A stretch of DNA of 20,020 nt from Candidatus Bathyarchaeia archaeon (GCA_050014495.1 JBEKDF010000043.1:1-20020); one strand, 5' to 3'. Counted from the first letter of the stretch, positions 299 to 19,905 are shown. The notes: generated by a model from the letters alone, not told the origin. A program made the numbers and translations.

Positions 299-423
299 GC
301 GCGCGATCTGTTGACACTGGTCTACTCAACAACGCGCGCGAATCATGCTGCATGTGCGAAGTTTAGTGTTTACCCACGCGCGCTGCTTTATATCCCACCC
401 TAACTTCTAATTGCGCATGCGCA
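299..423. repeat. Cluster of (GC)n tracts separated by ~30-nt unrelated spacers
   Basis: GCGCGCG 299-305, CGCGCGCG 333-340, CGCGCGC 377-383, and the palindrome TGCGCATGCGCA 412-423. Confidence 0.8.
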
Positions 424-442
424 GAATATCGGGTGATTCATA

Positions 443-1267
443 ATATCAACAAGAACCATTATTTACATAGGTATCCTTATCGTGATAATCGCAATAGCTG
501 GAGGAGCATACTACTTTAATACCCGCGCACCAGCGCTGCTGACTTACACTCTTACCATAGAACCTCCCGCAGGAAACGGCACAACCAACCCGCATACGGG
601 CGCTGAGACGCATAACCAGAGTGATAAGGTTCAGATCTCTGAGGTCCCAAGATCGGGTTGGAGCTTTGATCACTGGATAGTAGACGGATCATGGAGCGGA
701 ACCGCCGACAACATAACTATTACCATGAACTCCGCGCATACGGTCATGGCTGTATTCATTAAGGTGAAGCCTGTTATTACAAAATACAATCTAACTATGC
801 TAGCGCCAGTTGGGTCTGGCACGACTAGCCTCGGTGTTGGATCTCACTCATATGATGGGGGAACATTAGTCAACGTTACCGCGACTCCAGCTTCTAGCTG
901 GGTATTCGATCACTGGGTGATTGATGGTGCACCAAGTGGCAGCACTAACCCGGACAGGTTGTCGATGATTGCAAACCACACTCTCCAAGCCGTGTTTGCG
1001 CAGTCTCAACCTTAGAATACAGTAAAAATCACGATCTACGGTGGTGAGTTAACTTCATCGACTGGAAATACCTACTATGGATTCTCGCTTACGAGGGGTA
1101 ACCTAACTTCGCCGGGTCCAACACTGAATGTCACCCTTGGATACACTGTCACAGTCAATTTCACTAACATTGGAACGCTGCCCCACACCTGGGTGCTTAA
1201 GGCGGGTAATGATCCCACTTCAGCGACTCTCTTCAATGCGCGCGCGCCCTGTACCAGAACGTCTTAA
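443..1267 (+). pseudogene. Membrane-anchored surface protein with 2 InlB B-repeat-like domains and a truncated cupredoxin/sulfocyanin-like domain; disrupted
   Basis: SD-like GGGTGA 431-436 precedes ATA at 443 (probable former ATG), giving an N-terminal anchor STRTIIYIGILIVIIAIAGGAYYF. Two repeats follow (YxLT...GxGTT...W.FDHW.xDG...M...HT.xAVF). After the in-frame TAG at 1013-1015 the frame continues NTVKITIYGGE...SPGPTLNVTLGYTVTVNFTNIGTLPHTW...LFNA (cupredoxin-like N-half). It is cut at (GC)5 1238-1247 before any C-terminal Cys/His/Met copper ligands. Confidence 0.75.
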
Positions 1268-1354
1268 TATCGCGGTCACATTTTTAAGAGCGAATTTAAG
1301 TAAAATGCTTACCGATCCATAATAGACGTGAACAGGTCACGGATCTGACGGCCA

Positions 1355-2596
1355 ATGTCCTTTGAGGTTTTATATAGTATAAACGGAGTCATTTCCCTGG
1401 TCTTTATATTTTATATATTACGTCAATATCTTTTTTCAATCGTAACTTTAAGAAATAACGACTTAGATAACTTCACTGATTATATACCTAATCGTACTGT
1501 CTCCATTTTAATTCCTGCAAGAAATGAGGAGAGAGTAATAGATCAAACATTAGAATTCATGAGCAAACTAGACTATCCATTAGATAAAATGGAAATCCTA
1601 GTATTAAATGACGCCTCAACCGATGGCACCTCAAAAATTGCTCATGAATGGGCAGATAGATACCCATTTATTCGTATCGTTGATAGAAAAATTGGCGGTC
1701 TGGGAAAAGGTGACGTCCTAAACCAAGGATTAAGAGAATCAAAAAACGATATAATACTAGTTTTTGATGCTGATTACACTCCTGCGCCTGATACCGTTAA
1801 GAGATTGGTACGATGGTTTGAAGATCCTAAGATAGGGCTAGTTCAGGGGAGAATATACGTAGTGAATAAAGATACTAACATACTCACGAAGATGATTAAC
1901 ACAGAGAGATGTGCGGGTTTCTTATGCGATCTTTTTGCACGAGACAAGCTTAAAATTTCAAACCAGTATGGGGGCACCGCGGGTGGCTTTAGGAGAGAGC
2001 TCATCAGCAAAGTCGGTGAATGGGATGTCAACACCTATTGCGAAGATACTGACCTTACATGCAGAGCATTAATTGCAGGCTACAAGATAAAATATGATGT
2101 ATCCGTTAATTGCGGCGAGGAAGCTCCGGATAGTCTAAAAGCATACTATAAGCAGCGTTACCGCTGGATACGCGGCCACACTATTTGTGGGCTGAAGTAT
2201 ACGCAAGGATTACTAACCTCACCCTTTTTATCGATGAGAGAAAAAATAGACTCCTTCTTTTGGATAAACATTAACCTAATTCCGATCCTGATAATAATTG
2301 GACAAATTCTTGGGGTTACCCAATACTTCCTCTCTCCTGTTGTTCAAACACCACAGCCTTACTCAATGGCGATGATTTTTATCTCAGGCGGCGCAACAGT
2401 TGCAATGGTTTTTGCTAGCCTATATCAAATAAAACAGATGCGTTATCTGAAATTTGCGATATTAATGGTTCTAAACAGCTTTATAATGTCTTTCATTATA
2501 TCTATCAAAGTATATTTAGACATTTTATTTAACAGTCCCTTTAAATGGAATAAAACTGAACGGAGTATAATTATTCGGTCAACTACCCACCCCTAA
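1355..2596 (+). CDS. Membrane-bound processive family 2 glycosyltransferase (cellulose synthase/PgaC/IcaA-like)
   Basis: 413 aa. Motifs IPARNEE, NDASTD, GKGDVLN, DAD (DxD), CEDTDL, QRYRW (QxxRW), C-terminal WNKTER, with N- and C-terminal TM helices. Visibly more AT-rich than its neighbours. Confidence 0.93.
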   Translation: MSFEVLYSINGVISLVFIFYILRQYLFSIVTLRNNDLDNFTDYIPNRTVSILIPARNEERVIDQTLEFMSKLDYPLDKMEILVLNDASTDGTSKIAHEWADRYPFIRIVDRKIGGLGKGDVLNQGLRESKNDIILVFDADYTPAPDTVKRLVRWFEDPKIGLVQGRIYVVNKDTNILTKMINTERCAGFLCDLFARDKLKISNQYGGTAGGFRRELISKVGEWDVNTYCEDTDLTCRALIAGYKIKYDVSVNCGEEAPDSLKAYYKQRYRWIRGHTICGLKYTQGLLTSPFLSMREKIDSFFWININLIPILIIIGQILGVTQYFLSPVVQTPQPYSMAMIFISGGATVAMVFASLYQIKQMRYLKFAILMVLNSFIMSFIISIKVYLDILFNSPFKWNKTERSIIIRSTTHP

Positions 2597-2733
2597 AGAG
2601 GGTGGGCTTGCGGTTCAAGCTCCAGCACCCGCTGGCAGACCGCAATAGGCTGGTCGACATCAGCCCTCCACAGAATGTTACGGGCAGCATTCAAATCAGC
2701 GTTAGACTCATACCCACAGGCCCTACAGATGAT
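2562..2733 (-). ncRNA. Candidate TnpB omegaRNA (reRNA/sotRNA) scaffold plus flanking guide
   Basis: TnpB omegaRNAs overlap the tnpB 3' end and the right end. About 155 nt of that region is retained, and the guide would read CGAAUAAUUAUACUCC (reverse complement of 2562-2577). Expression is not shown. Confidence 0.4.
2578..2733 (-). mobile_element. tnpB: 3' remnant of an IS200/IS605-family (tnpB) element including its right end
   Basis: Minus strand 2733-2593 reads IICRACGYESNADLNAARNILWRADVDQPIAVCQRVLELEPQAHPL*, i.e. the zinc-ribbon CxxC half and RuvC-III NADxNAAxNI motif of TnpB. Subterminal hairpin CCCACCC-CTAAAGA-GGGTGGG (2586-2606) and terminal ...GTAGTTGAC. Truncated at GCGCGCGC 2734-2741. 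Confidence 0.88.
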
Positions 2734-2873
2734 GCGCGCGCACTTTGGCCCCAAACCCAAACCCGGGTCCAAACCCTGGGCCCCAAAAATAATCCAATAA
2801 ACCCTTATTTTTAATACTTAACTCATCGCGCGCAGCTTCAACAAGTCTGGGACTTCTCCGACGTTGCGCGCGC
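2734..2873. repeat. Cluster of (GC)n tracts with short unrelated spacers
   Basis: GCGCGCGC 2734-2741, CGCGCGC 2827-2833, GCGCGCGC 2866-2873. Confidence 0.8.
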
Positions 2874-2977
2874 AAATCAAGTCCTATTAACTAACTCTCG
2901 ATATTTATTCAGGATTACAGCATTGATTCTATATTTTGCACCAAGCTTTCCACTGCCAATTCGAAGCAATATTCCAT

Positions 2978-3214
2978 TTAAATATAATGCCCTTGAAGTA
3001 CGTGATGGATAGATTTCCCAGACAAGAAATTCTTGATCTCATCTCGATAAAAGAAAAACATATTTTCCTGGCTCTTCTCCAGCATTTCCTTATCTACTTG
3101 TTCTTTTTCCTTCTCAGATAGATCACACCAGCCCCTCATGACAGCTTCCTCTTCCCTTACTAATTCATACCTGCAACGAACATTACCATGCGAATCAATG
3201 TGATAGAGAGCCAA
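2978..3214 (-). CDS. Small charged hypothetical protein or gene fragment; start uncertain
   Basis: 78-aa ORF with protein-like E/K-rich composition, downstream of the leftward GTTCTA-N5-TAGCATTATA motif. No family recognised. Confidence 0.35.
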   Translation of the reverse strand: MALYHIDSHGNVRCRYELVREEEAVMRGWCDLSEKEKEQVDKEMLEKSQENMFFFYRDEIKNFLSGKSIHHVLQGHYI

Positions 3215-3217
3215 GAA

Positions 3218-3242
3218 GGATATAATGCTAAAGAGTAGAACA
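3218..3242 (-). promoter_or_regulatory. GTTCTA-N5-TAGCATTA operator/TATA element, copy 1 (divergent from wHTH gene 3354)
   Basis: Minus strand TGTTCTACTCTTTAGCATTATATCC, 23/25 identical to 10543-10567. Confidence 0.65.
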
Positions 3243-3311
3243 TCTGCTCACGCTCTATTGAGGAGACAAGATTTGTTTCCTTCCCCATCTACGAACTCTA
3301 GATAAGGAACC

Positions 3312-3332
3312 TTTTCGAGAAGCCTCATAAAC
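3312..3332 (+). promoter_or_regulatory. Promoter of wHTH gene: quasi-palindrome TTTTCGAGAA followed by TATA-like TCATAAAC
   Basis: The TATA-like element is ~22-29 nt before ATG 3354. The same layout occurs upstream of the wHTH genes at 10414 and 17288. Confidence 0.55.
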
Positions 3333-3353
3333 ACTGAACATGAACCACTAGCC

Positions 3354-4103
3354 ATGAGCGAGGATGATACATACTCAACGATCTTCACAGCCCTAAAGCA
3401 TCCTATAAGAAGAAAGATACTGCGCATCCTCAACCAGCAACCGACGACATACACGGAGATCCTGAACCAGCTAAACATCGAAAACGGATTGCTCAACTAC
3501 CACCTCGACAACATGAAGGACCTCATCACCAAGGGCGAGGATGGAAAGTATAGCCTCTCGGATTTCGGTGGAGCCGCGATCAGTGTAACCGAGAAGGTTG
3601 AGGGTCCAGTAAAGAGTAGAAGTAACTTGTTAAGTGCTAATCAGATGATTAGAATAATCCTGATTCTCATAGTCGCGATCGCTTCCCTCTCAGTTTTGGG
3701 TTTCCTCCTCTACAATAAAAATACCATGCTTCTCAACCAGAACACTATGCTTCTGAATCAGATCGAAACAGCAAATGTGGTCTTAGGATCATCGTTTGGA
3801 GCGTCAATATCTAGGGTACAGGCAATCACAATCGCCCTACGGAATGGTGGCTGGAACAGCACAGGCCTGAAGGGAATGAAGGTCGATTCGAACCTTGCAT
3901 ATTGTTCTCCTGTTGATGGTAATCTTCACTTTGTTAATAGTACAGTCACTGACTTTTCGCCAAAGAGCGCTACCGGAGTGATGTATCGATACTTTTGGCT
4001 GGTTACTGTTGATCAATCTGTATGGTGCGGCTATATTCGTCCCACCGGATATTATGAGGTTGACGCCGTGACGGGTGAGATAATACCTCTCTTCAACTGG
4101 TGA
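3354..4103 (+). CDS. Membrane-anchored ArsR-like winged-HTH regulator with PepSY-like ectodomain (regulator A)
   Basis: IFTALKHPIRRKILRIL...TYTEILNQLNIENGLLNYHL...KYSLSDFG (ArsR/HTH_20-like). One TM (IILILIVAIASLSVLGFLLY), a short coiled coil, then ISRVQAITIA...YFWLVTV...YEVDAVTGEIIP. Confidence 0.88.
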   Translation: MSEDDTYSTIFTALKHPIRRKILRILNQQPTTYTEILNQLNIENGLLNYHLDNMKDLITKGEDGKYSLSDFGGAAISVTEKVEGPVKSRSNLLSANQMIRIILILIVAIASLSVLGFLLYNKNTMLLNQNTMLLNQIETANVVLGSSFGASISRVQAITIALRNGGWNSTGLKGMKVDSNLAYCSPVDGNLHFVNSTVTDFSPKSATGVMYRYFWLVTVDQSVWCGYIRPTGYYEVDAVTGEIIPLFNW

Positions 4104-4224
4104 TTTATCGAGAACCGCTAAGAGAGGCGCACGCATTCTTACCCCATGAAGCCACGAGTCTCGGGCTGGTCTGGTCGGTGCGCTATCCCATTCTAGTTGA
4201 TTACCCAGCGCACGAAGTTGTTTT

Positions 4225-4944
4225 CTAACTTTTGACTATTGTGTTTAGAAACCAGATTGAACCTGCAACTATGATTAACAGGATAATGATGACCCATTGG
4301 AGGTCTATTTGAGATGGAATTCCTGAGGACCCTGATTGCGTCTGCGCCGCTCCAGCCGCTTCCTCGGCGGCTCTCGCAGCCTCAACAGAAGTATCAGGGC
4401 TAGTGGGACCCCCACCGGTAGATATAGATGAGAGTGGATACACGGAAATCTCGCGAGTCAACTGCTTTACGCCGCCCTACCAGACCGTGATTGAGTAGTT
4501 ACCCGCTTCCCCCAAAACGAAGTTGAAGGTGAACCAGTTCGAGTCTCTGCTATATGAGACGATGCTCTCGTAGGAGGACTCCACACCTCCAATCTGGGCT
4601 GTGATTACAGCTGTGGCACTGTATACACCCGTCTGATTGGACCTAATTGGTCCCACCCTCATCGTGATGGGCTCTCCTGCGATGAATATGTCATCGCGGA
4701 AGTTTACGTAACTTAGGGATAGTTGAGGTTGAACACTTGGTTCGGTTGCATTCGAAACTGGTTTGGAGGCTGTGAGTGCTGGAAACGAACCGGTTTGGGC
4801 AGCCGTTGTTGAATTAGATGCTGGAGCTAGCTGAGCGTGAGCAGGGAGAGAAAAAGAGGTCACAGCGCATACTGTGACGATGAATATGATGATGGTGATG
4901 ATGATTAATCGCCTCAACGTATTTTCATCACTTTCTAATCTCAT
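4225..4944 (-). pseudogene. Secreted, C-terminally anchored Ig-like protein, paralogous to the C-half of 10690..11982; split by in-frame TAG
   Basis: ORFs 4477..4944 and 4225..4461 are one frame: ...GNYSITVW*GGVKQLTREI...STGGGP... aligns with ...GKYTVTIWQNGVKQLARKF...STGGGP... The TAG (4477-4479) sits at the paralog's CAG. Signal peptide, C-terminal TM and an upstream TATA (minus-strand TTATATA, 4966-4972) are present. Confidence 0.8.
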
Positions 4945-5165
4945 TATGTAACCTTTAACTCTATGTATATAATTTCTATTTATTGTAAACAGAGTAAGTT
5001 ATTATGTATACAATATTAATGGAAACATGCTTGCGTTTACTTTTCACACGCATTCTTTATGCGCGCGCATCCTCGCTCCGTTAAGCAATAAGGCTCAGGC
5101 TGGTCGTAGCGCATGCTTCCATGATCAATCGATAATCATAATTCCTCAAACATACAGACATAGTC

Positions 5166-5951: not shown

Positions 5952-6088
5952 CTTGGGACATAATTGCATATGTCTACGCGTGCATCTGCTTTTCTCTGGT
6001 CTCTTGTCTTTTTTAGGAAAAGGTGGTTTAAGTCAAGAATGCTTCTCTATTTAATTGTTCGTGGAGTTCATCATTCTGGTACCCTTGA

Positions 6089-6421: not shown

Positions 6422-6445
6422 ACTAGTTACCCATGCGCGCGCTCT

Positions 6446-8854
6446 TTATTTGATCATGCTCACGTCGAGGACGACGGATGACTTGACGCCGCCGGACGCC
6501 TTGAAGGCGAAGGTGTAGAAGCCGCTCCTGGGCACATTGAAGAGTTGCTCGTAGCTCTGAAGCCCCGACTCGCGGATGATGTAGTCGCTCGGCTTCGCGA
6601 GCTCGAAGTCGGTGACGACTGAGACATCAGGGTTGTAGGTAAATGTGTAGAGACCAAACTCTACAGGCTTAGTAGCGTTGTAGCTGATCTTTATGGTGGT
6701 GCCCATCTTCACGTAGGAGCTGTAGAACCGCTCAACGTTGCCATAGTACGACTCCCCATTCGCTGTGTAGTTGTCGAATCCGAGGTTAAACTTGACTGGG
6801 AAATACTCAATCGTGTCGTTTTCTAACCCCTGGTTATTGTATCCGCTCACGATGTCTGAGGACTGCTTCGCGTATAGTGGATAGGGTCCGACGATCTCGG
6901 CTGAGTTGACGTGGAATAGATCAACGATTACTCCGTTGAGGCTGATTTGGAATGGGAATCCGGTGACCCGGATGGTGGAGTTCCCCACGTAGGCGTTGTT
7001 CAGGTCGGTGAGCGTCACGTTGCCGAGCATCTTGTAGCCCTCAACTGGCACCGAGATGAACTCGCTTGGTGTTCCGAGGTGGAGGAGGAGCGACTTGGTG
7101 GAGTTCTCCAGCTTAAGCGTCATCACACTTTCTTTTGATATGGGTGATGTTGAGGAGCCGAGCCTCCCGGTGATTGTCGTCGTTCTGTTGATTGTTGGTG
7201 GGAATTGGAAGTCTTGCTTGACCTCATCTAGCTGTTTGTCCTCTATCATGGCTGCGGTTTGATCTGGGTAGCTTAGGCTACTACCATTCACGGTTCGGCA
7301 CCTGAAGGCGACTATCGCCGTCTCCGGCTGCGCTACATCGAAGCTGAAAGTATATTTCCCCGTAGACCGGACCGTGTATGAACTCTTGTAAGAGTACAAG
7401 TTGTTGTAGCTTAGGACTGTTCCCGAATCTGATGCGAAGCCGAAGATAACCTGTTCTGTGGAGTTGTATCCAAATTCAATGACCGTGCCCTCGCTGAGCG
7501 TCGCCTCGAAACTGATCGAGTGATCGGTCCAAGTGCTATTATACCAAGTTCTACCGACTACGAAGCTCCTCGGGGGAGACTCCAGGTAGAAGGTCTCCCA
7601 GCCCATGCCTCCGAAGGCGCCGCTGCTGCCGCCCGATTCTTTAAAGAGAACCCCAGTTGGATCCCTGCTCACCTTCCAGGTGTTGAATGTGACGTTTGCT
7701 TCGGGTGAGTTTATGGTGAATGCGAAGTCGTAGGTGCCACTCCTCAGGGCTATCAGGCCGCTTCTCATATGCGTGGTGTTATCCGAGTACCAAGTGTAGG
7801 GTGGCTGCCCCTGGGCGACGTAGTAGATGCTGAATCCAACCTGTTGGGTGGAGTTGAACTCGAATCCGATTGCATCTCCCTCGTTTAGGATTACTCTATA
7901 GTTGTGTATCCGGGTGCCATTCAGGGATTTTCCTCCCTCAACGATGAATCTCTGAGGCTGGCTAGCATTACCCAGGTCCTGTACAGTTTGGTTCGTGACT
8001 GTGGCGTTGACCGTGGGCTCGACGTAGATAAAGTTAAGCTGGTTTGTACCCAGGAAGCCGATCTCCATGTCGAAGTGGGGAATCTGAGACCCATTTTGAG
8101 GCGATAGAAAATCAGCAGGGTAAGGGACAGAAGTGTGGATCTCGAGTAGGAAGAACGCGGATCCGCCGGTCTTCAAGATCGCGGACGTAGCGTTCGCTGT
8201 CACGCTGAAACCCATCGGTACGCTAGTTACATTCAATGACACCGGAAGCGAGGCGTTGTAGTAGGGCCTAGCTATCACCCTCAACACAACTGATGTAGAT
8301 TCACCTGGTTTCACCCTTATTGGGGTGCTCGGGTCCCACGCGTTTGGGTGAAGTGACATCAGGTAATCGGGACCAACCGCCGTGACTCCGCCGCCGGTGC
8401 TTTCGAGGCTGAGCATGAGTTCCCCGGTCTGCGCGTCCACGACGTATCTCCCCGATCCTACATAATCTCCGGGAAGAGGTACGAGGTCTGTCTCGTATTC
8501 GATGAGCCAGTATGGTCTGACTTCTCCAACCGGTGTCGGTGAGACATATATTCGGTCGTGCATAGTTAACGGGTCCGAGTTCACTGTCTTTAGGTAGTTT
8601 GTCCAGTTTAGCGAAATATATTCTAGGTCGGCGCTTGCGGGTGAGGCGCTGCCACCTGGGATGCCATTGATTATTCTGGGATCGGTTTTATCGCTTTCTT
8701 TTAGTATCTCGATCGCCTGCGCCTCTGACACGTTTATCGATTGCGCTGGTTGGGTCTGTGATGCTGATTGGGTCTTTGCCACCGTGAGGAAGGCTGTGGT
8801 TGCGAGTATGATGGAGATCAGCACCGTTAGGGTGATGGTTGATGTTTTAGGCAT
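6446..8854 (-). CDS. Large secreted protein: PepSY-like domain, Ig-like domain and three GOLD-like beta-sandwich repeats
   Basis: 802 aa with signal/anchor. Residues ~40-280 are paralogous to 12022..12822 and 14856..15659 (LxYISLNW, PVGExRPYW, GSGRYVVDAQTGE, YNASLPVS, LKTGGS). Three repeats of G.xI.(F/I).(F/Y)N(S/A)T..V.F...(S/T)G.Y.F.F follow. Confidence 0.85.
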   Translation of the reverse strand: MPKTSTITLTVLISIILATTAFLTVAKTQSASQTQPAQSINVSEAQAIEILKESDKTDPRIINGIPGGSASPASADLEYISLNWTNYLKTVNSDPLTMHDRIYVSPTPVGEVRPYWLIEYETDLVPLPGDYVGSGRYVVDAQTGELMLSLESTGGGVTAVGPDYLMSLHPNAWDPSTPIRVKPGESTSVVLRVIARPYYNASLPVSLNVTSVPMGFSVTANATSAILKTGGSAFFLLEIHTSVPYPADFLSPQNGSQIPHFDMEIGFLGTNQLNFIYVEPTVNATVTNQTVQDLGNASQPQRFIVEGGKSLNGTRIHNYRVILNEGDAIGFEFNSTQQVGFSIYYVAQGQPPYTWYSDNTTHMRSGLIALRSGTYDFAFTINSPEANVTFNTWKVSRDPTGVLFKESGGSSGAFGGMGWETFYLESPPRSFVVGRTWYNSTWTDHSISFEATLSEGTVIEFGYNSTEQVIFGFASDSGTVLSYNNLYSYKSSYTVRSTGKYTFSFDVAQPETAIVAFRCRTVNGSSLSYPDQTAAMIEDKQLDEVKQDFQFPPTINRTTTITGRLGSSTSPISKESVMTLKLENSTKSLLLHLGTPSEFISVPVEGYKMLGNVTLTDLNNAYVGNSTIRVTGFPFQISLNGVIVDLFHVNSAEIVGPYPLYAKQSSDIVSGYNNQGLENDTIEYFPVKFNLGFDNYTANGESYYGNVERFYSSYVKMGTTIKISYNATKPVEFGLYTFTYNPDVSVVTDFELAKPSDYIIRESGLQSYEQLFNVPRSGFYTFAFKASGGVKSSVVLDVSMIK

Positions 8855-8880
8855 TAGTGATTACTGAGGGGCACCGGCGA

Positions 8881-8902
8881 CTTAATGCTAGTGTTTAGAA
8901 CA
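8881..8902 (-). promoter_or_regulatory. GTTCTA-N5-TAGCATTA operator/TATA element, copy 2
   Basis: Minus strand TGTTCTAAACACTAGCATTAAG, ending ~27 nt before ATG 8854. Confidence 0.65.
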
Positions 8903-8995: not shown

Positions 8996-10414
8996 TCAGG
9001 ATTCTAGGTTTGACAATACTAGTATACCGTCAGCGCTTATCCCCAGGTCGTCCAAGGCCCACCTGGGGAAGACGAACACCTGCCCAGCATCATCGGGTGC
9101 CCGAACTGTAGCGGTGATGTTCACCGTCTCCCCTGTCCTCAGTGGCAAAGATCCAACTGGCTCGTAAGTTAGAACGTCTCTGAGCCTGTCCGCCATGTTC
9201 GACTGCACCTGATAGGGATCCCGGTACTGCGGGTCGATGATGAGCTTAGCATAAGGAGTATTCACATTGTATGAGATGAACGTCGCCGACACCGTGAAGG
9301 TGAGGTTGCCACCCCCCAAGATCTGTATCTGCTCCGGCAAATCAGGATACACAAGCTTCACGTAGCCATCAATACCCTGAGCAGCTGCCTTCGCAGCAGT
9401 GTCTACCTGAGACTCACTTAGCCCCAAGCCGCCTCGACCGTTCGTCGAATACACTTGGCCGGTGACCGGGTCAACCATGGCGTACATGTACATCCGCGTC
9501 CTGGCCCAGGGTGGATCGATATACGATGTGACCTGCCAGACGTACTTGTCAGTGTAGGGTGATTGAGGGTTGACATCGTATCCGAAGGCACCAACTATCT
9601 CCGCTGCCAACCCATAGGGGCTATCGAATAGACCAGCGTTGAGGGCGAGGCGCTTCGCTTCAGCCGCCGTGATGTTGTATGGCTGCAGGTTACCCTCCAC
9701 GGGAATTTCACCGGATTGCATTATGTACTCCGGATGGAACTCGAAGATGATTTTTTCATCCTTAGAGTAATTCCCCACCTCTATGCGGTAGCTGTATGTG
9801 ACTCTGGTCGCGTTTGGCTGATTGGCTGGATTTGACTCGACGGTGGGGTCGTGGAAGTACTTGTTGAAGTAGTCGACCCCGACTCTGTCTATGATGATGG
9901 TGGAGGCCCTTACAAGCGGGTTCTTCTCAAGGGTGGTCAGGGTCGAGTTGAGTCGACTCGAAGACGCTACGGAGGTGTTAAGTGCTGATTGCAGGTAGCT
10001 CTTCTCGATGCTCTGAGTGCTGTATCTTCCGGATAAGTCGAGGTACCTGTTGTTGAGCTCAATGAGCCCCAAGCCGGATACGACGAGGGCGACTACTAGG
10101 ACCGCTGCGAGCACCTTCATGATGGGCGAGGTGAAGGTTGATTTAACTACCTTACTCGGCTCCTCCACGCCTCTAATCAGGCCAGCCGTGGCCCTTCCGA
10201 AGTCGGATAACGTGTACTTCTCCTCGCCATTCTTGGTGATGAGTGAGCTCAGGGCCTCTAGGTGGTAGTTGAGGAGCCCGTTGTCTATGTTGAGGTCCCT
10301 CTGGATCTCCGTGTAGGTCGATGGCTTCTCGCCTATCATTCGTAGGATTCTTCGCCTTATGGGATGCTGTATTGCCTTGAAGATGGTGTTGTAGGTGTCC
10401 TCCTCGAAGCCCAT
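8996..10414 (-). CDS. Membrane-anchored ArsR-like winged-HTH regulator with large PepSY-like plus beta-rich ectodomain (regulator B)
   Basis: IFKAIQHPIRRRILRMI...NIDNGLLNYHL...KYTLSDFG, TM (VLAAVLVVALVVSGLGLI), coiled coil, then ITAAEAKRLA...YVWQVT...MVDPVTGQVY. Confidence 0.88.
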   Translation of the reverse strand: MGFEEDTYNTIFKAIQHPIRRRILRMIGEKPSTYTEIQRDLNIDNGLLNYHLEALSSLITKNGEEKYTLSDFGRATAGLIRGVEEPSKVVKSTFTSPIMKVLAAVLVVALVVSGLGLIELNNRYLDLSGRYSTQSIEKSYLQSALNTSVASSSRLNSTLTTLEKNPLVRASTIIIDRVGVDYFNKYFHDPTVESNPANQPNATRVTYSYRIEVGNYSKDEKIIFEFHPEYIMQSGEIPVEGNLQPYNITAAEAKRLALNAGLFDSPYGLAAEIVGAFGYDVNPQSPYTDKYVWQVTSYIDPPWARTRMYMYAMVDPVTGQVYSTNGRGGLGLSESQVDTAAKAAAQGIDGYVKLVYPDLPEQIQILGGGNLTFTVSATFISYNVNTPYAKLIIDPQYRDPYQVQSNMADRLRDVLTYEPVGSLPLRTGETVNITATVRAPDDAGQVFVFPRWALDDLGISADGILVLSNLES

Positions 10415-10613: not shown

Positions 10614-10658
10614 ATGAAACTTGTATACATCCTAATTATCATGCATGCGCGCGCGTAG
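10614..10658 (+). pseudogene. Signal-peptide stub truncated at a (GC)n junction
   Basis: MKLVYILIIM then HARA* where the GCGCGCGCG tract (10647-10655) begins. It lies downstream of motif copy 3. Confidence 0.35.
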
Positions 10659-10689
10659 TATGGCAGTCAATGCATAAAAGTGAAGCATT

Positions 10690-11982: not shown

Positions 11983-12021
11983 GACCACTAGCTACGCTCC
12001 CAAGAAATGAGTTTGTTCACA

Positions 12022-12822: not shown

Positions 12823-13252
12823 TTAGATTACCAACTACAGGTACAATCAAAATGTTATTTAGACCTTAGTCTCAGGATTTACAACTGTAGAAAAAGCAAA
12901 ATCTAATAGATTGAAACTTCCGTAATCGTGCGCAATATTTAAGAAATATAAAATCAGTCTTCAAAGTTTAATGTCTTGTCCTTACTACATCCAGGTAGAG
13001 TGCTACGCAGATGCACTCAACAACGATCTCAAACCCTCCAATATCCCAAAGAACCTCAGCCCTCTCTGTAAAACTGATGACGAGTGGCAAAACTGTGAAC
13101 GATACAATAAGTCAGAGCTGGGCAAAGACCCGGATGAACCATAAAACCCTGGGGTGTTACACACGCATAGAATACAAAGGAAATCGGGGCTCGTATGCAT
13201 TCACTATGGAAAAGCGTAAAAATCATCCAGATTGCTAACTCATTCGACGCCA

Positions 13253-14518
13253 ATGATCAAGAAGAGGATCCTTATCACAGCCTTGGTCATAGTATTAGTC
13301 TCCCTACCTCTCGCTTTCCTACTACCCCCATACATGCGGTCGCAAGCTCAGACACAAGCCTACGCCGCATCGGACCAGAAAGCCGCAAACGCCGACCCCG
13401 AGATCGTGAATGCCAACACCCGCTTCGCGGTCTCGATGATCCAGCAACTAGCCAAGGAGGATCCTGGGAGCAACATATTGATCTCTCCACTCAGCGTCTC
13501 CACCGCCCTAACCATGGCGTACAACGGCGCCGGAGGAACGACGAAGGAGTCGATGGCTAGAACTCTTGGGGTAGAGAATATGAGCCTCAGCAGATTGGAT
13601 AACGGATACCTTAACCTGCTTCAGAGCCTCCAATCCGTCGACGACACGATCCAACTCAGCATAGCCGACTCGATGCTGGTGAAAGACGTGTTCGCGCCTA
13701 AGGTAAAGCAGAGTTTCACCGACAACGTCACGAATTACTTCATGGGTGAGGTCTCCATCCGCCCATTCGACTCCACCACGGTGACCTACATAAATAACTG
13801 GGTGAGCGAGAAGACGAATGGCGTGGTCCAGAAGATGCTGGACGCGATCGACCCGAAAGACGTAGTGATCCTGCTGAATACCATCTACTTCAAGGGAGCC
13901 TGGTCAAACATGTTCAACCCATCCTGGACACGCCCCGGCGTCTTCAAGCTGAGCGACGGATCAACGGCCACCGTCAGCTACATGAACAAGGAAGCGAGTT
14001 ACGGGTACCTCAACGACAGCGAGGCCCAAGCCATCAGACTACCCTACGGTAGGGGCAAGGTCGCGATGTATGTCTTTGTGCCCCGCTCATCGTTGGACTC
14101 CTTCCTTGATGGTTTGACTCGGGGGAGGCTCGACGGCTACTTCACACGCTTCCAGCAGAAGGATCTGGAGCTTAGTATGCCAAGGTTCAACGTGACTTAT
14201 GGGACGAGGAGCCTGAATGACGCGTTGAAGAGTCTCGGTATGGGTGTGGCCTTCGATTGGATGAATGCGGACTTCAGCGGTATCGCGTCGGGGCCGCCGA
14301 ATCTGGCCATAAGTCAGGTTGATCATAAGGCTTACGTCGGCGTCGGTGAGGGGGGGACGGTGGCCGCCGCGGCTACGTCGGTTGAGATTATTCAGACGGC
14401 CTCTAGGCCTGGGTTTGTGGTGGATAGGCCGTTTCTGTTCGTCATCAGGGACGACCGCTCCGGGTCGATACTCTTCATAGGAGAGATAGAGAATCCCCTG
14501 CAGACGACCTCTCCGTAA
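13253..14518 (+). CDS. Secreted or membrane-anchored serpin (serine protease inhibitor, MEROPS I4)
   Basis: NILISPLSVSTALTMAYNGAGGTT, INNWVSEKTNG, LLNTIYFKGAW, RLPY, MPRF, hinge EGGTVAAAAT and FVVDRPFLFVIRD...ILFIG. ATG 13253 gives the signal MIKKRILITALVIVLVSLPLAFLL; the ORF track starts at TTG 13232. Confidence 0.96.
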   Translation: MIKKRILITALVIVLVSLPLAFLLPPYMRSQAQTQAYAASDQKAANADPEIVNANTRFAVSMIQQLAKEDPGSNILISPLSVSTALTMAYNGAGGTTKESMARTLGVENMSLSRLDNGYLNLLQSLQSVDDTIQLSIADSMLVKDVFAPKVKQSFTDNVTNYFMGEVSIRPFDSTTVTYINNWVSEKTNGVVQKMLDAIDPKDVVILLNTIYFKGAWSNMFNPSWTRPGVFKLSDGSTATVSYMNKEASYGYLNDSEAQAIRLPYGRGKVAMYVFVPRSSLDSFLDGLTRGRLDGYFTRFQQKDLELSMPRFNVTYGTRSLNDALKSLGMGVAFDWMNADFSGIASGPPNLAISQVDHKAYVGVGEGGTVAAAATSVEIIQTASRPGFVVDRPFLFVIRDDRSGSILFIGEIENPLQTTSP

Positions 14519-14745
14519 TGTACTTTGTTGGGGATAGGATGCTTCTCCAAAAAGATACTCGCCGCCAGTTACGCGAATGGGCAATCCTCTTCGAGGATTA
14601 TCCTGGGCTTGGTAAGACTCTGCTGGCCAAGGCATTCGCGAAGGCGACTGGATGTGAATTTAGTCGTGTAGAACGAGGAAAGGAACACTAAGCCTGTGAG
14701 TCTCACCCTCAATGGTGACCTGTCGCTCCTCCCAAATGGGCTTCA
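14518..14745. pseudogene. moxR: Scrambled MoxR-family AAA+ ATPase relic (two fragments on opposite strands)
   Basis: + strand 14518-14670 reads YFVGDRMLLQK...ILFEDYPGLGKTLLAKAFAKATGCEFSRV (Walker A). The minus strand 14731-14669 reads EERQVTIEGETHRLSVPFLVL, the segment that precedes ATQNP in MoxR. Confidence 0.8.
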
Positions 14746-14809
14746 TCGGCTCCGGTGGGAAAACGATTATCACTGGGCTGATCACGCGCTCCTCACTCTT
14801 AATGGACTC

Positions 14810-14830
14810 GTTCTAATCACTAGCATTAAA
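14810..14830 (+). promoter_or_regulatory. GTTCTA-N5-TAGCATTA operator/TATA element, copy 4
   Basis: GTTCTAATCACTAGCATTAAA, ending 26 nt before ATG 14856. Confidence 0.65.
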
Positions 14831-14855
14831 CATAGGTCAATTGATAGAATGAACC

Positions 14856-15659: not shown

Positions 15660-15691
15660 CAGCGACTCATTTCGCCAACCCCAAACCAATC

Positions 15692-15780
15692 CGCGCGCGC
15701 TTAAGGCCCTCGTCCTCGTTGGCGCGCGCTTAACGAGTGTCTCCTTCTCCTCCAGGGCTTCGAATGTGATTTGTGCGCGC
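15692..15780. repeat. Cluster of (GC)n tracts, including direct repeat GCGCGCGCTTAA x2
   Basis: GCGCGCGCTTAA at 15693-15704 and 15722-15733. GCGCGC 15775-15780 is the left target-site copy of the IS. Confidence 0.8.
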
Positions 15781-17065
15781 CGGCTTGTCCCGAAATTCAT
15801 CCAGGCTAGAATAAGCTTATTTTGATAGTTGAGGGTCTCGTCCTCTTGATGGTCTGTCCAACCGTAGGAGGTGAGTTCACTTAGGACAAGATGAACACGA
15901 GACCCTCGAAACACTCTTCAAAAACATCGACTTAAGCATTGCTGAACAGCAACTACTCGGCTGCTACCACACAGCCGGCCCCGGCAGGCCACCGAGGAAC
16001 CCCCTAGGCATACTCAGAGCCCTCCTAGTCATGCGATTGAAGGGAATCCGCAGCCTACGGGAGATGACCAGGATCCTCGACGTAGACAGACGCCTCAGAA
16101 AGCTCTGCCTCATCAAACCCAGCGAGAGGGGATACACGAGGTCAGTAATCAGCCGCTTCACCCACAGGGTCGGAGCCGACCGGATTCAGCTCATCATAGA
16201 GGAGAAGGTTGTGCGGCTCCTAAGGAGGGCTAAAGTGGAGGAGGTGGACGTCATCTTAGACGCCAGCTTCGTCAAGGCTTGGAGCAAAAGGCACCCCGAC
16301 GACGGTAGGATAGGCTTCTCAGACTCTGACGCGAAGGTCGGGAGGAACGGTCGAGGCTACGACCTCGGCTACAAGCTCCACGTCTCCGTGGATCAGAGGA
16401 GGATCCTGCCTCTGGCCGAGGTGATCGCTCCCGCCAACGAGAACGAGAAGAGGCACGCGCCGTCCCTGGTCGAGAGGACCCGGATGGTCCTAGGGAGGGC
16501 CGATGCTAGGCTCAGGAGCCTGATCGCGGACAGCCAGTACAGCAGCGCCAAGGTGAGAGGCCTGGTGGAGACTGCTGTGATCCCTTATACGGCAAGCCAG
16601 ATGCGTGGCGTGGATGTGCTGAGGGTGGATCGGAGGTTCAGGACACATGGCCCCGAGGTAGAGGTGGTTGAGTACCGTAGGCGGCCGGCGGTGGAGGCTT
16701 CGTTTGCCTTCATGAAGACCCAGTTCGGGTTGACTGTGAATAAGGTGAGGGGTCTGCTGGGTGTGTCGGTGTACGCTCTTCTTAGTGTGCTGTGCTGTGT
16801 GCTGAACAGGGAGGCGGCGGAGAACCTGGGTAGGCCGGAGAAGGCCATCTCGCCGACGTTCTTCAACGTCTAAGGGTTCGCGTCTACGGTCGGCGTATGG
16901 GCCGTGGTTAGTGGGTGCTGGGCTTGTCTGTGTCGTTTTTCAGTCGTTTTGCTGGTGGTGTGTTTTGTCTTTGGGGCTTTTTCGGTGTTGGGTCGTCGTT
17001 GGGGTTGATTGTTGGGGTTTTGTTGGTGATTGCTGTTCTAAAGTATTTGATTTAGGGACGAGCCA
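15781..17065 (+). mobile_element. Complete 1285-bp IS5/IS1182-like insertion sequence with 6-bp GCGCGC target-site duplication
   Basis: Left end CGGCTTGTCCCGAAATT and right end (reverse complement) TGGCTCGTCCCTAAATC. GCGCGC lies immediately outside both ends (15775-15780, 17066-17071). Single transposase ORF. Confidence 0.88.
15881..16873 (+). CDS. DDE transposase with DUF772/InsH-like N-domain, ~330 aa; start codon apparently non-canonical (TTA)
   Basis: The open frame extends 50 codons upstream of ATG 16031 (LGQDEHETLETLFKNIDLS...GPGRPPRNPLGILRALLVM). Catalytic motifs ILDASF, GYKLHVSVD, LIADSQYS, YRRRPAVEASFAFMK. SD GGAGGTGA 15867-15874 sits 6 nt before TTA 15881. Confidence 0.88.
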   Translation, partial: LGQDEHETLETLFKNIDLSIAEQQLLGCYHTAGPGRPPRNPLGILRALLVMRLKGIRSLREMTRILDVDRRLRKLCLIKPSERGYTRSVISRFTHRVGADRIQLIIEEKVVRLLRRAKVEEVDVILDASFVKAWSKRHPDDGRIGFSDSDAKVGRNGRGYDLGYKLHVSVDQRRILPLAEVIAPANENEKRHAPSLVERTRMVLGRADARLRSLIADSQYSSAKVRGLVETAVIPYTASQMRGVDVLRVDRRFRTHGPEVEVVEYRRRPAVEASFAFMKTQFGLTVNKVRGLLGVSVYALLSVLCCVLNREAAENLGRPEKAISPTFFNV

Positions 17066-17236
17066 GCGCGCATTCTTTGGATTGGCTATATTCTATTATT
17101 CAAGAAGACGCGCCTACGCTAAATACTAAATAAATACGGGCTGGTGCCCCTCTCCATCTTTTTTCATAGTCACATACTCAAACACGAGTGGAGAAGATTT
17201 CTTACCTAAATACTTGGATAGTCTAGGTAATTTTCC

Positions 17237-17256
17237 TTTTCAAGAACCCCTTTATA
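17237..17256 (+). promoter_or_regulatory. Promoter of regulator C: TTTTCAAGAA followed by TTTATA
   Basis: TTTTCAAGAA-CCCC-TTTATA, ~32-37 nt before TTG 17288. An upstream inverted repeat TTACCTA (17202-17208)...TAGGTAA (17224-17230) is also present. Confidence 0.6.
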
Positions 17257-17287
17257 GGCACACGAAACAAGCCTAATCCGATCCAAC

Positions 17288-18340
17288 TTGAGCGAAGAGG
17301 ATGACACATACTCAACCATGTTCACTGCGCTCAAACATCCAATTCGGAGGAAGATACTACGAATCGTCAGCCAGTCACCAGTCACCTACACAACGATACT
17401 GAACCAGCTTGGAATCGACAACGGTCTACTAAACTACCACCTCGAAAACATGAGAGCCCTTCTTGCCAAGGATGATGAAGAGCGATACCATCTATCGGAA
17501 TTCGGGAAAGCGTCCATCAACTTAATTCAAAGGGTTGAGGAGATCCCCGCAGCTCAGAAGCCCATGGTTCTTGGGTTGAATACAAAACAGGTGACATCGG
17601 TCCTGCTGATTTTGATAATCGGGCTAGCATCTGTCTCCACGCTACTGGGAGTGAGCTATAACGACCATCAACAATTGGGCAATGTGCTTGCCCAGACCCG
17701 CTCCCAACTCGACTTAACCAATCAGCGATTGCAAAACATCTCCTACCTCCAGACACTCACAAACATCACCAAGTCACCGACCGCGATTGTGCCATCATAC
17801 TTCATGACATTCAACTACGATGAAGGACCACCTCTGGTATGGGATCAGCAAACGTCCATCATCGTCTACTATGTGCCCGTCGATGGCTCGGTTACTCGCC
17901 TCGAACTCATTGTACCCTCTTCAAACAGATACACCCTCGAGCTAACCCTCCAGGATGGTAACGCCTGGAAGAATGAGACCTGGGTGAGGCTAGGAACCGT
18001 CGACCAGGTGTACGGCAAGAACCAGAACGCGTCGTTAGGTTCGAGGGTCGTCTGGCAGGCACCTATAGAGTGGTCGATGAACGTCTCCGATTCAGGAGTC
18101 TACGTGACGCCTCCTCTGAGTAGAGGCTGGCATACGTTGAGCATGTTTGGTCCGATAACCCTCCTCGACAAGCTTGTGGCAAGGGGGGAAGACGACTACT
18201 ACAGGTATCCGATGTTTCACGGCTCTGTAGAGGATCCTTCAGCTTCTGTAAAGATGTATAGCTACAGCGTCGCCATCACCGCTTACGTTCAGAAGAATAA
18301 CGATCCCATCTTCTTCGCTGTGGAAAACCGGAGGTATTAG
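17288..18340 (+). CDS. Membrane-anchored ArsR-like winged-HTH regulator with uncharacterised beta-rich ectodomain (regulator C)
   Basis: MFTALKHPIRRKILRIV...GIDNGLLNYHL...RYHLSEFG, TM, coiled coil; ectodomain motifs SII.YYVP.DGS, TLQ.GNAW.N.T, VWQ.PI.WS, GW.T.SMFGP, FFAV. Confidence 0.88.
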   Translation: MSEEDDTYSTMFTALKHPIRRKILRIVSQSPVTYTTILNQLGIDNGLLNYHLENMRALLAKDDEERYHLSEFGKASINLIQRVEEIPAAQKPMVLGLNTKQVTSVLLILIIGLASVSTLLGVSYNDHQQLGNVLAQTRSQLDLTNQRLQNISYLQTLTNITKSPTAIVPSYFMTFNYDEGPPLVWDQQTSIIVYYVPVDGSVTRLELIVPSSNRYTLELTLQDGNAWKNETWVRLGTVDQVYGKNQNASLGSRVVWQAPIEWSMNVSDSGVYVTPPLSRGWHTLSMFGPITLLDKLVARGEDDYYRYPMFHGSVEDPSASVKMYSYSVAITAYVQKNNDPIFFAVENRRY

Positions 18341-18342
18341 GC

Positions 18343-19290
18343 ATGTGGGATTATGAGGACGGGCTACTCGACTACCACCTGGAAAATATGAGGGAACTCA
18401 TCTCCAAGGGCGAAGATGGCAAGTACAGTCTCTCAGAGTTTGAAAGAGCCGCATTGAGCGTAACTAGGAGGGTCGAGGAACCAGTTCAAAGAAAGACTGG
18501 TGTAAGCGTGTGGACCCTGCTGGGGGTAATAATGATCCTAGTCGTAGCGATGGCTACGTTGTCCGGGTTCTACATTATCCTGTTCAACAATTACCAGTCA
18601 CAGAGCGCAGTGCTCACCGAGACTAGTGCAGCCCTCGAATCCGTGAACACTCGACTTAACAGGATTGCACCGCTTGGCGAGTTGATGAACGTCTCCCAGC
18701 CAGCGACGTGGACGACCTTCGGTATACAGATTGTGAAAGGGTTCCCCATGTCATACAAGTACCAGAACATCTCATCGAACACGTCTCTTAGCGACACTAC
18801 GACCTCCATCATAACATTCTATGTACCGGAAAATGGTTCCACTATACACTTCGATTTGGTGGTGGTGGACCCCGTTAACGTGTATGATCTTCACCCGACG
18901 CTTCAGAGGGGAAACGCGTGGAGAAATGACACAAGGGTCAGTGCCGGAACAGTTGGGAAATACTTCAACCTGACTAATCCTAGTACTCCGAATCTGCAGT
19001 TGACGGTATGGCAGTCACCCATTCTCTGGTCTATTACGACAAACGGTGACGGGGTCTACGAGTCCCCGAAGCTGTCTAAGGGTTGGTATACCTTCAGCAT
19101 GTTTGGTCCGGTAATCGCGTATGGCTCCGCTTCGGATATGGGTATGACTCAGGTTCGTACACTCTACGAGTTTTATCCTCGTTATCCCGGTAACGAGGAG
19201 TATGGGCTGATGAGCTTTAGGGCAGATGCCAGCTTCTCTATACTGCGAAATGGGGAAGCGACCTTCTTCGCAGTTTCAACCGATCACTAA
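18343..19290 (+). CDS. 5'-truncated wHTH-TM-ectodomain paralog (regulator D; lacks the first ~40 aa of the wHTH); possibly a pseudogene
   Basis: Begins at DGLLDYHLENMRELISKGEDGKYSLSEF. The ectodomain is colinear with regulator C. ATG lies 2 nt after the regulator C stop. Confidence 0.75.
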   Translation: MWDYEDGLLDYHLENMRELISKGEDGKYSLSEFERAALSVTRRVEEPVQRKTGVSVWTLLGVIMILVVAMATLSGFYIILFNNYQSQSAVLTETSAALESVNTRLNRIAPLGELMNVSQPATWTTFGIQIVKGFPMSYKYQNISSNTSLSDTTTSIITFYVPENGSTIHFDLVVVDPVNVYDLHPTLQRGNAWRNDTRVSAGTVGKYFNLTNPSTPNLQLTVWQSPILWSITTNGDGVYESPKLSKGWYTFSMFGPVIAYGSASDMGMTQVRTLYEFYPRYPGNEEYGLMSFRADASFSILRNGEATFFAVSTDH

Positions 19291-19351
19291 ATCGAAAAAT
19301 CGCGTAATTTGATAAGATAGTGAAGGTGAATTAGTAGTCACTCAAACAAGA

Positions 19352-19852
19352 GTGGTCGCAGTGAAACAACATACCTTCATCTTCTCGCTTCTTATCATAA
19401 TTCTTCTATCAGTGACACTAATCGGAGCCATAGACCAAAAACCCAGAAATTACACTGCACCTTCACCTAAAACCGAAAATGGTCCACCGTTTACCAGCGT
19501 GGAGGCGATACAAGCCGACATCGACTGGTACAAGACGACCTTCGGAGAAGACCTTTCAGGGCAAAACCTGACGGCGACGCTGTACCTTACCAGATCATTT
19601 CACGTATACGGTACCAATGGAAGCAGCTTCGAGATGCTGAAGGAGGCGATGCTCATCGGAGGAGGATACGCCCCGTGGACGGAGTATAACACTACGGACC
19701 CGGGAACGTACTCGTATCCGCCTGTCTACGGTGATATGACGTATCGATTCGTTTGGGAGGTGAAGGTGAGGGGTTCAAACAGCCTACCCCCGGACGGCTA
19801 CGCTTTCGTCGATGCCTACACCGGGAAGATAATCCCAATGACATTACTGTAA
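19352..19852 (+). CDS. Secreted or anchored stand-alone PepSY-like protein resembling the regulator A ectodomain
   Basis: N-terminal hydrophobic segment; YRFVWEVKV...PPDGYAFVDAYTGKIIPM versus regulator A YRYFWLVTV...RPTGYYEVDAVTGEIIPL. Confidence 0.8.
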   Translation: MVAVKQHTFIFSLLIIILLSVTLIGAIDQKPRNYTAPSPKTENGPPFTSVEAIQADIDWYKTTFGEDLSGQNLTATLYLTRSFHVYGTNGSSFEMLKEAMLIGGGYAPWTEYNTTDPGTYSYPPVYGDMTYRFVWEVKVRGSNSLPPDGYAFVDAYTGKIIPMTLL

Positions 19853-19905
19853 TCCATACCTCTATTTCTGGGAGCGTACAGGCTGGACCAATCAACAATG
19901 CGCGC

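Follow-up and report, generated by a model that had tools for sequence, protein, structure and literature searches.

GC tracts at rearrangement junctions of a Bathyarchaeia archaeon may be RNA-templated end-joining scars

The 20,020-nucleotide stretch of DNA analysed here (the window), which comes from a Candidatus Bathyarchaeia archaeon, is dotted with short runs of alternating G and C, and it raises the question of what these runs are and how they came to lie where they do. An earlier note on this DNA had listed 15 GCGCGC tracts at gene boundaries and truncation points, and a recount in the window returned all of them at the same starts with lengths of 6-10 bp. Their excess over chance also holds, as the window contains 24 overlapping GCGCGC matches compared to 3.24 +/- 1.86 in 100 shuffles (shuffle maximum 11), and none of the 15 tracts lies inside any of the 17 called genes. 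However, they do not define an island. The host genome (G000) contains 958 tracts on 82 of its 92 contigs, and the density in the window is only about 2.4 times the genome average. The host is a peat archaeon, and tracts are present well beyond the window. Among the tracts of at least 8 bp in G000, 392 are non-coding and 67 are found in called genes. The cyanobacterial HIP1 is likewise a highly iterated short palindrome. HIP1 is common in coding DNA and arises by substitution, whereas the tracts here avoid genes and mark breaks.

Palindromes can confuse assemblies and the tracts are intergenic, which would suit chimeras that arose during assembly or amplification, or else a conserved signal of regulatory or Z-DNA type. 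However, the joins at 333, 377, 1238, 2827, 2866, 6435, 15692, 15722, and 15775 are bridged by contigs of the runs X8, X9, and X10, and X1, which is possibly the source run, bridges the same nine and all remaining internal tracts with 0 differences in its long pieces. The idea of junctions without read support is thus refuted by the same joins in separate sequencing runs. In addition, homology ends at the tracts instead of conserving them, and decayed versions exist, so that chimeras or a conserved signal seem extremely improbable. Alternative alleles at the free tracts of the window were not seen in the run contigs, which drop rare variants. In G000 only 12 of the 958 tracts are longer than 10 bp, and a G follows (GC)5 at 3 of 126 ends. 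We do not use this length cap as proof because, although sharp in G000, it is soft in G016 and G021.

Comparison with paralogs shows the tracts to be junctions of rearrangement. In G000, paralog alignments stop at 72 of the 376 long non-coding tracts, compared to 145 of 3000 random sites, and they run through none of the 376, compared to 258 of 3000. This was replicated in G016, where 34 of 107 tracts break alignments compared to 6-13 at shifted positions and 2 are spanned compared to 18-38, and in G007, where 0 of 45 are spanned compared to 2-9. Synteny running through the tracts, the pattern that the earlier note had set against its own reading, was thus not seen in the paralogous DNA of G000. 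In the window, the homology of a tnpB remnant (2578-2733, PF07282) stops at 2723-2739 next to an 8-bp scar at 2734-2741. A signal-peptide stub (10615-10646) is truncated by the scar at 10647-10655, where an intact paralog on contig C1 (87%) departs at 10642 and has no GCGC. Both breakpoints had been proposed before and stand. The third of these, a cupredoxin-like stub at 1016-1237, ends at a 10-bp scar with an AT edge (1238-1247, bridged by X10); its assignment is weakly supported (PF07732, E 0.02), and no paralog was found for comparison. Several scars come in pairs: those at 333-340 and 377-383 bound orphan fragments of 27 and 36 bp (bridged by X8 and X9), those at 2827-2833 and 2866-2873 surround a 32-bp fragment (bridged by X9), and those at 15692-15700 and 15722-15729 a 21-bp fragment (bridged by X8). 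A paralog on C21 departs at the scar 5061-5068, which is old, since G002 carries a decayed version at this position.

The scar at 6435-6442, confirmed to lie 3 nt past the stop codon of an ORF at 6446-8854 on the minus strand, is common to a copy on C34 that runs on into different DNA, and is thus a re-used breakpoint. Such a tract, common to two copies that then continue into different DNA, is found at 9 of 97 junctions, and weak re-use of scars as repeat breakpoints does occur. This could also be expected if the tracts were crossover cores at which a site-specific system shuffles cassettes and so moves modules intact. However, of the 54 truncated protein matches ending at most 99 nt from a long tract, 45 end at most 8 nt away and in mid-gene, and the parent sequences are without the core. 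The cassette-core alternative offered in the earlier note fails because breakpoints lie mid-gene and inside IS copies and because no flanking site is shared beyond the IS ends; we consider it very unlikely. A conserved site surrounding the core and whole-gene cassettes, as expected for integron-type cassettes, were not found.

What lies between the joined ends is foreign to both parents. Intact paralogs are without GCGC or CGCG at 78 of 88 scar junctions, and seven colinear deletions, in which 27-1255 bp were lost, carry 8-14 bp of GC filler. The tract is therefore new sequence and not a duplicated native target. In the lost intervals of the seven deletions a 6-mer was seen only once, in one of the 15 homologs that represent a single case, and small deletions of 27-89 bp also carry filler. 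Most paralog joins (58 of 83) connect unrelated loci; the 25 colinear ones comprise 8 shared tracts, 9 substitutions, 1 false pairing with an IS, and the 7 deletions. Small-indel scars were not seen among them, the smallest loss being 27 bp. A fold-back or P-nucleotide origin was rejected, the left and right flanks being no more palindromic than shuffled pairs, and C3:37200, at first a candidate for a small deletion, is an equal-length in-frame chance 8-mer instead.

Four of the 15 tracts of the window abut IS ends, and the GCGCGC-flanked IS family suspected in the earlier note is indeed active here. The complete element (15781-17065, plus strand) is 1285 bp long, has imperfect terminal inverted repeats, and is flanked by GCGCGC target duplications at 15775-15780 and 17066-17071. 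Its transposase frame (16031-16873) matches DDE_Tnp_1 and DUF772 and is open upstream to 332 aa. The window begins with the right end of an IS5-like element (1-298, plus strand, the second end type), which is cut by the contig end, matches elements in G016, G014, and G009 at 78-89%, and is flanked by a tract at 299-305. It closes with a tract at 19900-19905 and the left end of a multicopy IS5-like element (19906-20020, plus strand), of which four other contig ends carry a 100% identical copy. The elements share terminal inverted repeats, a fixed duplicated target, and MITE derivatives with the IS5 superfamily, and the repeats and target duplication together with the DDE_Tnp_1 transposase justify calling the complete element IS5-like. 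However, it differs from the named families in its 6-bp GCGCGC duplication and in a transposase (280-aa frame) below the NCBIfam cut-offs (73 compared to 140 bits for IS5_4, 77 compared to 270 for IS1182). It may resemble the ISH1 subgroup.

Could the IS alone have made the scars? A GCGCGC-targeting IS would excise, and the GC-ended breaks would rejoin out of register, be joined to a resected end, or capture fragments, the scars multiplying until hardly any flank was native. GCGCGC precedes 68 of 111 IS-end motif matches, the two genomes richest in scars also have the most IS ends (55 in G000, 43 in G016), the distant G039 carries both IS and clustered scars, and tract lengths of 6, 8, and 10 bp fit the overlap of two hexamers. 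Excision sites of mPing, a PIF/Harbinger-type element, are repaired via microhomology derived from the target site duplication (PMC4561436). However, only 64 of 1915 tract flanks are within IS-end clusters, and none of 17 IS flanks has a native GCGCGC in intact paralogs. The earlier footprint model was thus right about the junctions and the active IS, but a duplicated native target is not supported. A simple excision footprint in colinear DNA was not found either: the flanks of the tracts are not colinear, the colinear cases have lost sequence, and filler lies inside deletions as small as those of 27-89 bp. Moreover, the phase of the scars varies between genomes independently of the IS. G007 is dominated by CG-phase scars (76 G-ended compared to 18 C-ended long tracts), whereas only GC-phase IS ends were seen there, and G023, a genome only 69% complete, has 84 compared to 12, with 183 kb free of IS-end clusters and no match to DDE_Tnp_1. 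Nor would the IS explain why RNA word and scar edge agree, as described below, and scars made by the IS alone are therefore unlikely. Instead, the IS5-like elements sit in pre-existing scars, which distinguishes them from IS5-superfamily elements at native sites. In G016, 10 of 12 complete elements are perfectly flanked, and subtracting the 6-bp duplication leaves sites of 6-10 bp. A search for empty IS alleles in metagenomes found none at 14 loci, 13 of which have the same insertions as G000.

The filler could also have been made without any RNA template by a resident polymerase (the LigD Prim-Pol, the replicative PriSL, or a 439-aa AEP) through G/C addition, self-annealing, and slippage, and this would cover the genomes in which the RNA was not found. 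G000 encodes a Ku-ligase-Prim-Pol operon at C3:63436-67463, 21 of 32 direct junctions share at least one base of microhomology, and PriSL of Saccharolobus anneals ends via 2-4 GC pairs and makes G/C-biased insertions (PMC12019639). However, Ku occurs in two genomes free of scars (G001 and G010), whereas none was found in the scar-rich G021, G022, G023, and G039; by this distribution, in which the absence calls rest on incomplete genomes, scars do not depend on Ku. Whether scarred or not, 38 of 41 genomes carry PriS-family genes, and the 439-aa AEP is full-length in G000 and only four of 17 genus relatives. Ku and the 439-aa AEP were therefore rejected as common causes, as was an RT, with no PF00078 (RVT_1) match in G000, G001, G010, G013, and G016. 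A resident polymerase gives no reason for lineage-specific AT, TA, or AA edges, and we regard this explanation as quite unlikely.

A better candidate is an extra primase (AEP) of 268 aa, which is intact in G000 at C53:7058-7864, matches PF01896, and has a profile match to the host PriS at 96.7%. Across 50 homologs D99, D101, and D205 are invariant and the SG-GFH motif is nearly so, and 17 of 22 loci of the family have a tract of at least 8 bp nearby. Among 41 genomes only G000 yielded an intact member, while broken pieces were found in G016, G002, G009, G012, G013, and G007; relatives in viral contigs were not found. An A/T-rich word upstream of the AEP on C53 was considered as template but is probably a TATA box.

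At the 3' end of the AEP lies a conserved structured RNA in 9 loci (E <= 1.5e-15) and 2 weak ones, while no copy was seen following the AEP of L216, L218, L220, L228, L229, and L240. By eye, the RNA also has putative K-turn-like boxes. Its 3' hairpin is 94% paired with compensatory changes in 10 of 14 pairs, and none of 500 shuffles was as good, slid controls reaching 29-57%. In an Rfam scan of five RNA loci the best score was 26.4 compared to 50 bits and thus below the gathering score. G000 has seven full copies, which the first RNA model missed or, for two of them, ranked at E about 1, and which were reached through a weak match in G012. They sit at the 3' ends of unrelated genes and not directly behind the AEP, two of them at 2.3-2.8 kb from its gene, and one copy lies at C53:10210-10329. 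The AEP and the first RNA copy are linked on a single X1 contig without difference and at a depth like that of the window. Among the candidates scored, at most 81-150 per genome, the RNA was not found in the scar-rich G007, G013, G015, G021, G022, G023, and G039.

The RNA carries a short word that can be compared with the edges of the scars. In G000 the local scar edge, ATGCGC, has its complement in the word GGCGCAUA, and of 577 scar edges 159 are C/AT (2.6 times background), while C/TA is at 0.68 times. In the stretch 5055-5068, the six bases ahead of the scar at 5061-5068 match the entire complement of this word. Loci of the GCGCUA type have the C/TA edge in 7 of 40 cases compared to 36 of 891 in G000 (p 0.0016), locus L225 with the word GCGCGUA has G/TA in 5 of 12 compared to 41 of 891 (p 0.0002), and G011 with the word UGCGAAAA has G/AA in 26 of 233 compared to 50 of 891 (p 0.005), an effect that is weaker among G-ended tracts (p 0.08). 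These p values are overstated because the lineages are related and the locus samples small. With this reservation, the word co-varies with the scar edges in other lineages. By the same logic, G023 is predicted to have a word of the GCGAA type and G007 one in CG phase. The word in L221 is GUGCGAUC, and this locus has few scars. The G000 word GCGCAT was predicted before its copies were found, and the G011 edge before counting. The signal reaches only two bases, ATA being no higher than ATT or ATG. Six of 30 direct junctions do not fit the template register, only 1 of 33 junctions with extra bases before the tract is in register, and for the many G-ended tracts of G016 there is no RNA variant that matches.

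Taken together, we consider it somewhat more probable than its negation that the tracts are RNA-templated end-joining scars, likely written by the extra AEP copying the small structured RNA. A broken 3' end would pair with 0-2 bases of the template, and one slip would allow extension to about GCGCGC. Two such self-complementary tails would anneal with an overlap of 6, 4, or 2 bp, and would therefore give tracts of 6-10 bp and allow any two ends to be joined, resulting in deletions, captured fragments, and mosaics. In these the tract would be filler absent from both parent sequences. Gaps would be filled and ligated by host enzymes; G000 has Ku/LigD, whereas none was found in several relatives rich in scars. 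GCGCGC-targeting IS5-like elements would then settle in the scars, where insertion is safe, and some breaks may in turn result from excision of these elements. With the same slight leaning we propose that the AEP and its template RNA of ~100-130 nt form an RNP that adds self-complementary GC tails in the manner of telomerase. This RNP would travel with mobile DNA and mark each lineage with a signature that can be read from its RNA. It would also have assembled the mosaic accessory genome and opened a target niche that IS5-like elements, with their IS1111-type parasites, came to exploit.

In telomerase, repeats are templated by an RNA word in a structured RNA. The bacterial DRT10 is an RT-ncRNA system (bioRxiv 10.1101/2025.10.16.682844), and as in both of these, the tandem repeats here would be copied, with realignment, from a short word of a structured non-coding RNA. 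Such an RNA, whose template complements the repeat, was found, whereas the candidate enzyme is an AEP, the five genomes searched having no RT domain. The product also differs: it is an internal, self-complementary tract of 6-10 bp, and its role would be to link ends, not to cap them or to serve defence. In Saccharolobus islandicus end joining an archaeal AEP likewise acts at breaks by terminal transfer and GC-pair annealing (PMC12019639). That enzyme is the replicative primase, leaves 1-2 bp indels, and has no described RNA template, whereas here a separate 268-aa family would leave alternating filler of a fixed kind. For archaeo-prokaryotic NHEJ (Ku, Prim-Pol, ligase, phosphoesterase; PMC4797286), G000 has the full operon, and the junctions here show 0-2 bases of microhomology, but the distribution of the operon does not track the scars, and small indels were not seen among them. 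Deletion-coupled insertions and repeat-mediated deletions in Haloquadratum walsbyi also combine loss and gain of unrelated DNA at one archaeal point (PMC3119063); unlike the tracts here, the sites show no reported sequence conservation, and GCGC does not occur in that paper.

Even if the RNA part falls, no account of a fixed alternating filler at junctions in prokaryotes was found in open-access full text. If true, the proposal would mean a telomerase-like reaction by a primase fold, a new archaeal route of break repair and foreign-DNA capture, and a mark that can be read at hundreds of joins in each genome. With the RNA word swappable, it would also offer a programmable route to universally sticky ends. 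CRISPR-like capture was tested with fragment matching: 32 of 220 tract-bounded fragments have a match elsewhere in the genome compared to 88 of 1098 controls, which would fit remnants or capture.

All 15 GC tracts that the earlier note had claimed are present in the window, which holds 24 GCGCGC hexamers where 3.24 are expected, and none of the 15 falls within a called gene; the joins across them are bridged by separate sequencing runs. Over the whole 3.1 Mb genome (G000), of which the window forms contig C43, GCGCGC is the most over-represented hexamer. G000 occurs in peat and wetland runs and belongs to an archaeon, most likely one of the Bathyarchaeia to judge from its primase genes. The alternating tracts of G000 total 958 (313 of 6 bp, 186 of 7, 192 of 8, 144 of 9, 111 of 10, and 12 longer). 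A purpose-made simple gene caller assigns 2.55 Mb to genes and leaves 0.55 Mb as non-coding; of the tracts of at least 8 bp, 392 lie in the non-coding part and 67 in the called genes. The one-transition variants GCGTGC and GTGCGC are three to four times denser in non-coding than in coding DNA of G000 and are probably decayed scars. G000 has 512 octamers; 40 related genomes have between 0 and 402 each, and relatives differ in the proportion of perfect to decayed ones. The two genus members with near-zero counts are AT-rich in their sampled parts (34-40% GC).

The earlier reading of the GC tracts as scars of rearrangement is right: they mark breakpoints. Of the 376 long non-coding tracts of G000, 72 coincide with the end of a paralogous alignment and none is spanned by one, compared with 4.8% ends and 8.6% spans at random non-coding sites and 2.7-5.9% and 8.8-16.5% at shifted controls. 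The pattern recurs in the relatives G016 and G007; the samples of G021 and G023 contained too few paralogs for this comparison. At the protein level, 45 of 71 truncated matches in the 300-bp tract flanks stop within 8 nt of the tract.

The parents do not contain the tract sequence. For 56 of 76 breaks, neither GCGC nor CGCG occurs near the corresponding point of the paralog. In a stricter projection of 97 junctions, nine have the tract in both copies; of the remaining 88, 78 are without so much as a 4-mer. IS copies, whose parent is defined by many intact copies, are cut by GC tracts at arbitrary internal points. In G000 and the fetched relatives, 83 tracts out of 1074 could be placed on both sides, and 58 of these 83 unite unrelated loci. 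Seven of the 83 are colinear deletions (27, 44, 89, 167, 317, 455, and 1255 bp) sealed by 8-14 alternating bases. It is likely that the tracts are filler written at end-joining, and we lean slightly towards an RNA-templated archaeo-eukaryotic primase (AEP) as the putative writer, judging from sequence. A literature search of open-access full text found no description of such a system.

The earlier note had attributed the tracts to IS elements targeting GCGCGC. A complete IS5-like element (15781-17065) indeed has GCGCGC on both flanks, and the two ends of the window's contig are both ends of a related element. If a 6-bp duplication is subtracted, complete elements in G016 leave sites of 6-10 bp resembling free scars; in G000 the same subtraction leaves 11-12 bp in three of five, a poorer fit. 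Only 64 of 1915 tract flanks lie inside IS-end clusters. Tract phase is a property of the genome, with C-ended to G-ended long-tract ends at 604:314 in G000, 18:76 in G007, and 12:84 in G023; the IS ends are all GC-phase in G007, and none were seen in G023. An origin from IS elements only would need many cycles of scar multiplication and unseen CG-phase elements. Where a paralog allowed comparison, at 17 IS flanks, no native GCGCGC was seen (one was near-cognate). IS footprints are probably wrong as the origin of the tracts. The IS5-like element is real but looks secondary to the scars. In G000, a member of the IS110 family whose inverted repeats are sub-terminal, as in the IS1111 type (PF01548 and PF02371; C17:57466-58774, locus L146, and C48:5781-7090; also at L003/L015 and L007) adjoins the first base of IS5-like ends, the usual place of the GCGCGC flank. 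This parallels IS4321/IS5075, which target Tn21 repeats according to a title cited in PMC11187229. A GCGCGCG word conserved in the non-coding region of this element is a candidate seekRNA guide.

Concerning the writer of the filler, Ku/LigD is encoded in G000 but its distribution does not follow the scars, and a search of five genomes for a reverse transcriptase as candidate found none. The complete archaeal NHEJ operon (C3:63436-67463, L147) comprises Prim-Pol, Ku, a ligase-phosphoesterase fusion, and DUF72; besides G000, Ku is carried by 14 of the 17 relatives in its genus and by one other genus. Two extra AEPs, of 439 and 268 aa, are encoded in G000. The former, absent from several scar-rich genomes, was rejected as the common cause; it forms a two-gene unit with a 114-aa gene (C20:26047-27707, L149), and counterparts of this unit in G005, G007, G013, and G017 share about 70% of its nucleotides and lie in differing neighbourhoods. 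The 268-aa AEP (C53:7058-7864) adjoins an integrase remnant and retains the invariant acidic residues and motif II of its family. It has 91 database relatives, and family loci are found in Bathyarchaeia, Brockarchaeota, and Nitrososphaerota-labelled records. These loci are scar-rich, 17 of 22 having a tract of at least 8 bp; in five, the gene preceding the AEP is presumably radA, judged by eye. Among the 41 genomes examined, an intact AEP of this family was found only in G000.

A conserved non-coding element, matching no Rfam family, overlaps the 3' end of the AEP gene at nine loci, plus two weak ones, and its 3' hairpin is backed by covariation. A single contig joins AEP and RNA, at a depth like that of the window. 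G000 has seven full copies, six of which read GGCGCATA in the conserved loop, three half copies, and one scar-cut stub. The same element lies at the 3' end of an RNase H-like exonuclease with HhH motif (C62:3400-4353, L280), and further copies come after unknown genes of 93 and 98 aa on C53, C56, and C40. Because it stands behind several unrelated genes, the RNA might instead be a mobile 3' element that serves a different role. A search that scored at most 81-150 candidates per genome did not find it in seven scar-rich relatives. The lack of RNA and intact AEP in relatives would fit a mobile module that is often lost, but also a search of too little sensitivity or a candidate that is wrong.

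If this RNA were the template, its short GC-rich word might be reflected in the bases flanking the scars. After G000 scars, A is enriched 1.84-fold and AT 2.59-fold over background while TA falls to 0.68-fold, the pattern expected from the complement of GCGCAT. At seven loci selected for their GCGCTA-type RNA, TA edges make up 7 of 40 cases versus 36 of 891 in G000, and L225, with the word GCGCGTA, has CG-phase TA edges in 5 of 12 versus 41 of 891 in G000. In G011, which has three copies of TGCGAAAA, G|AA edges have double the share of G000 (26/233, from 300 kb of tract-rich contigs, versus 50/891). G023 has exactly this edge in 32 of 88, and no RNA was found in it. The signal spans two bases, and the p values of these comparisons are inflated by kinship. 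Direct junctions are in template register in 24 of 30 cases, the C-to-G and G-to-C steps being partly true by construction, and extra bases ahead of tracts fit the template in one of 33. The best template match in the window (5055-5068) is an old scar, of which G002 carries a decayed version.

A multicopy repeat around GATAAGGCTAT lies, cassette-like, between small membrane-protein genes on C15, C40, C44, C50, C53, C72, C74, C75, C84, C86, and C90. GC tracts are entirely missing from C50, C72, C74, C75, C84-C87, C90, and C92, and several of these contigs bear this repeat, which suggests a second, integron-like assembly route in G000. In the window, a one-component receptor-like family combines an ArsR-type winged-helix protein with a transmembrane segment and extracellular domains that vary between copies (3354-4103, 8996-10414, 17288-18340, and 18343-19290, the last having lost its start). 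After a secreted serpin (13232-14518; PF00079, E 1.5e-97) comes a MoxR-type AAA fragment (14518-14691), and there is no GC tract at its end.
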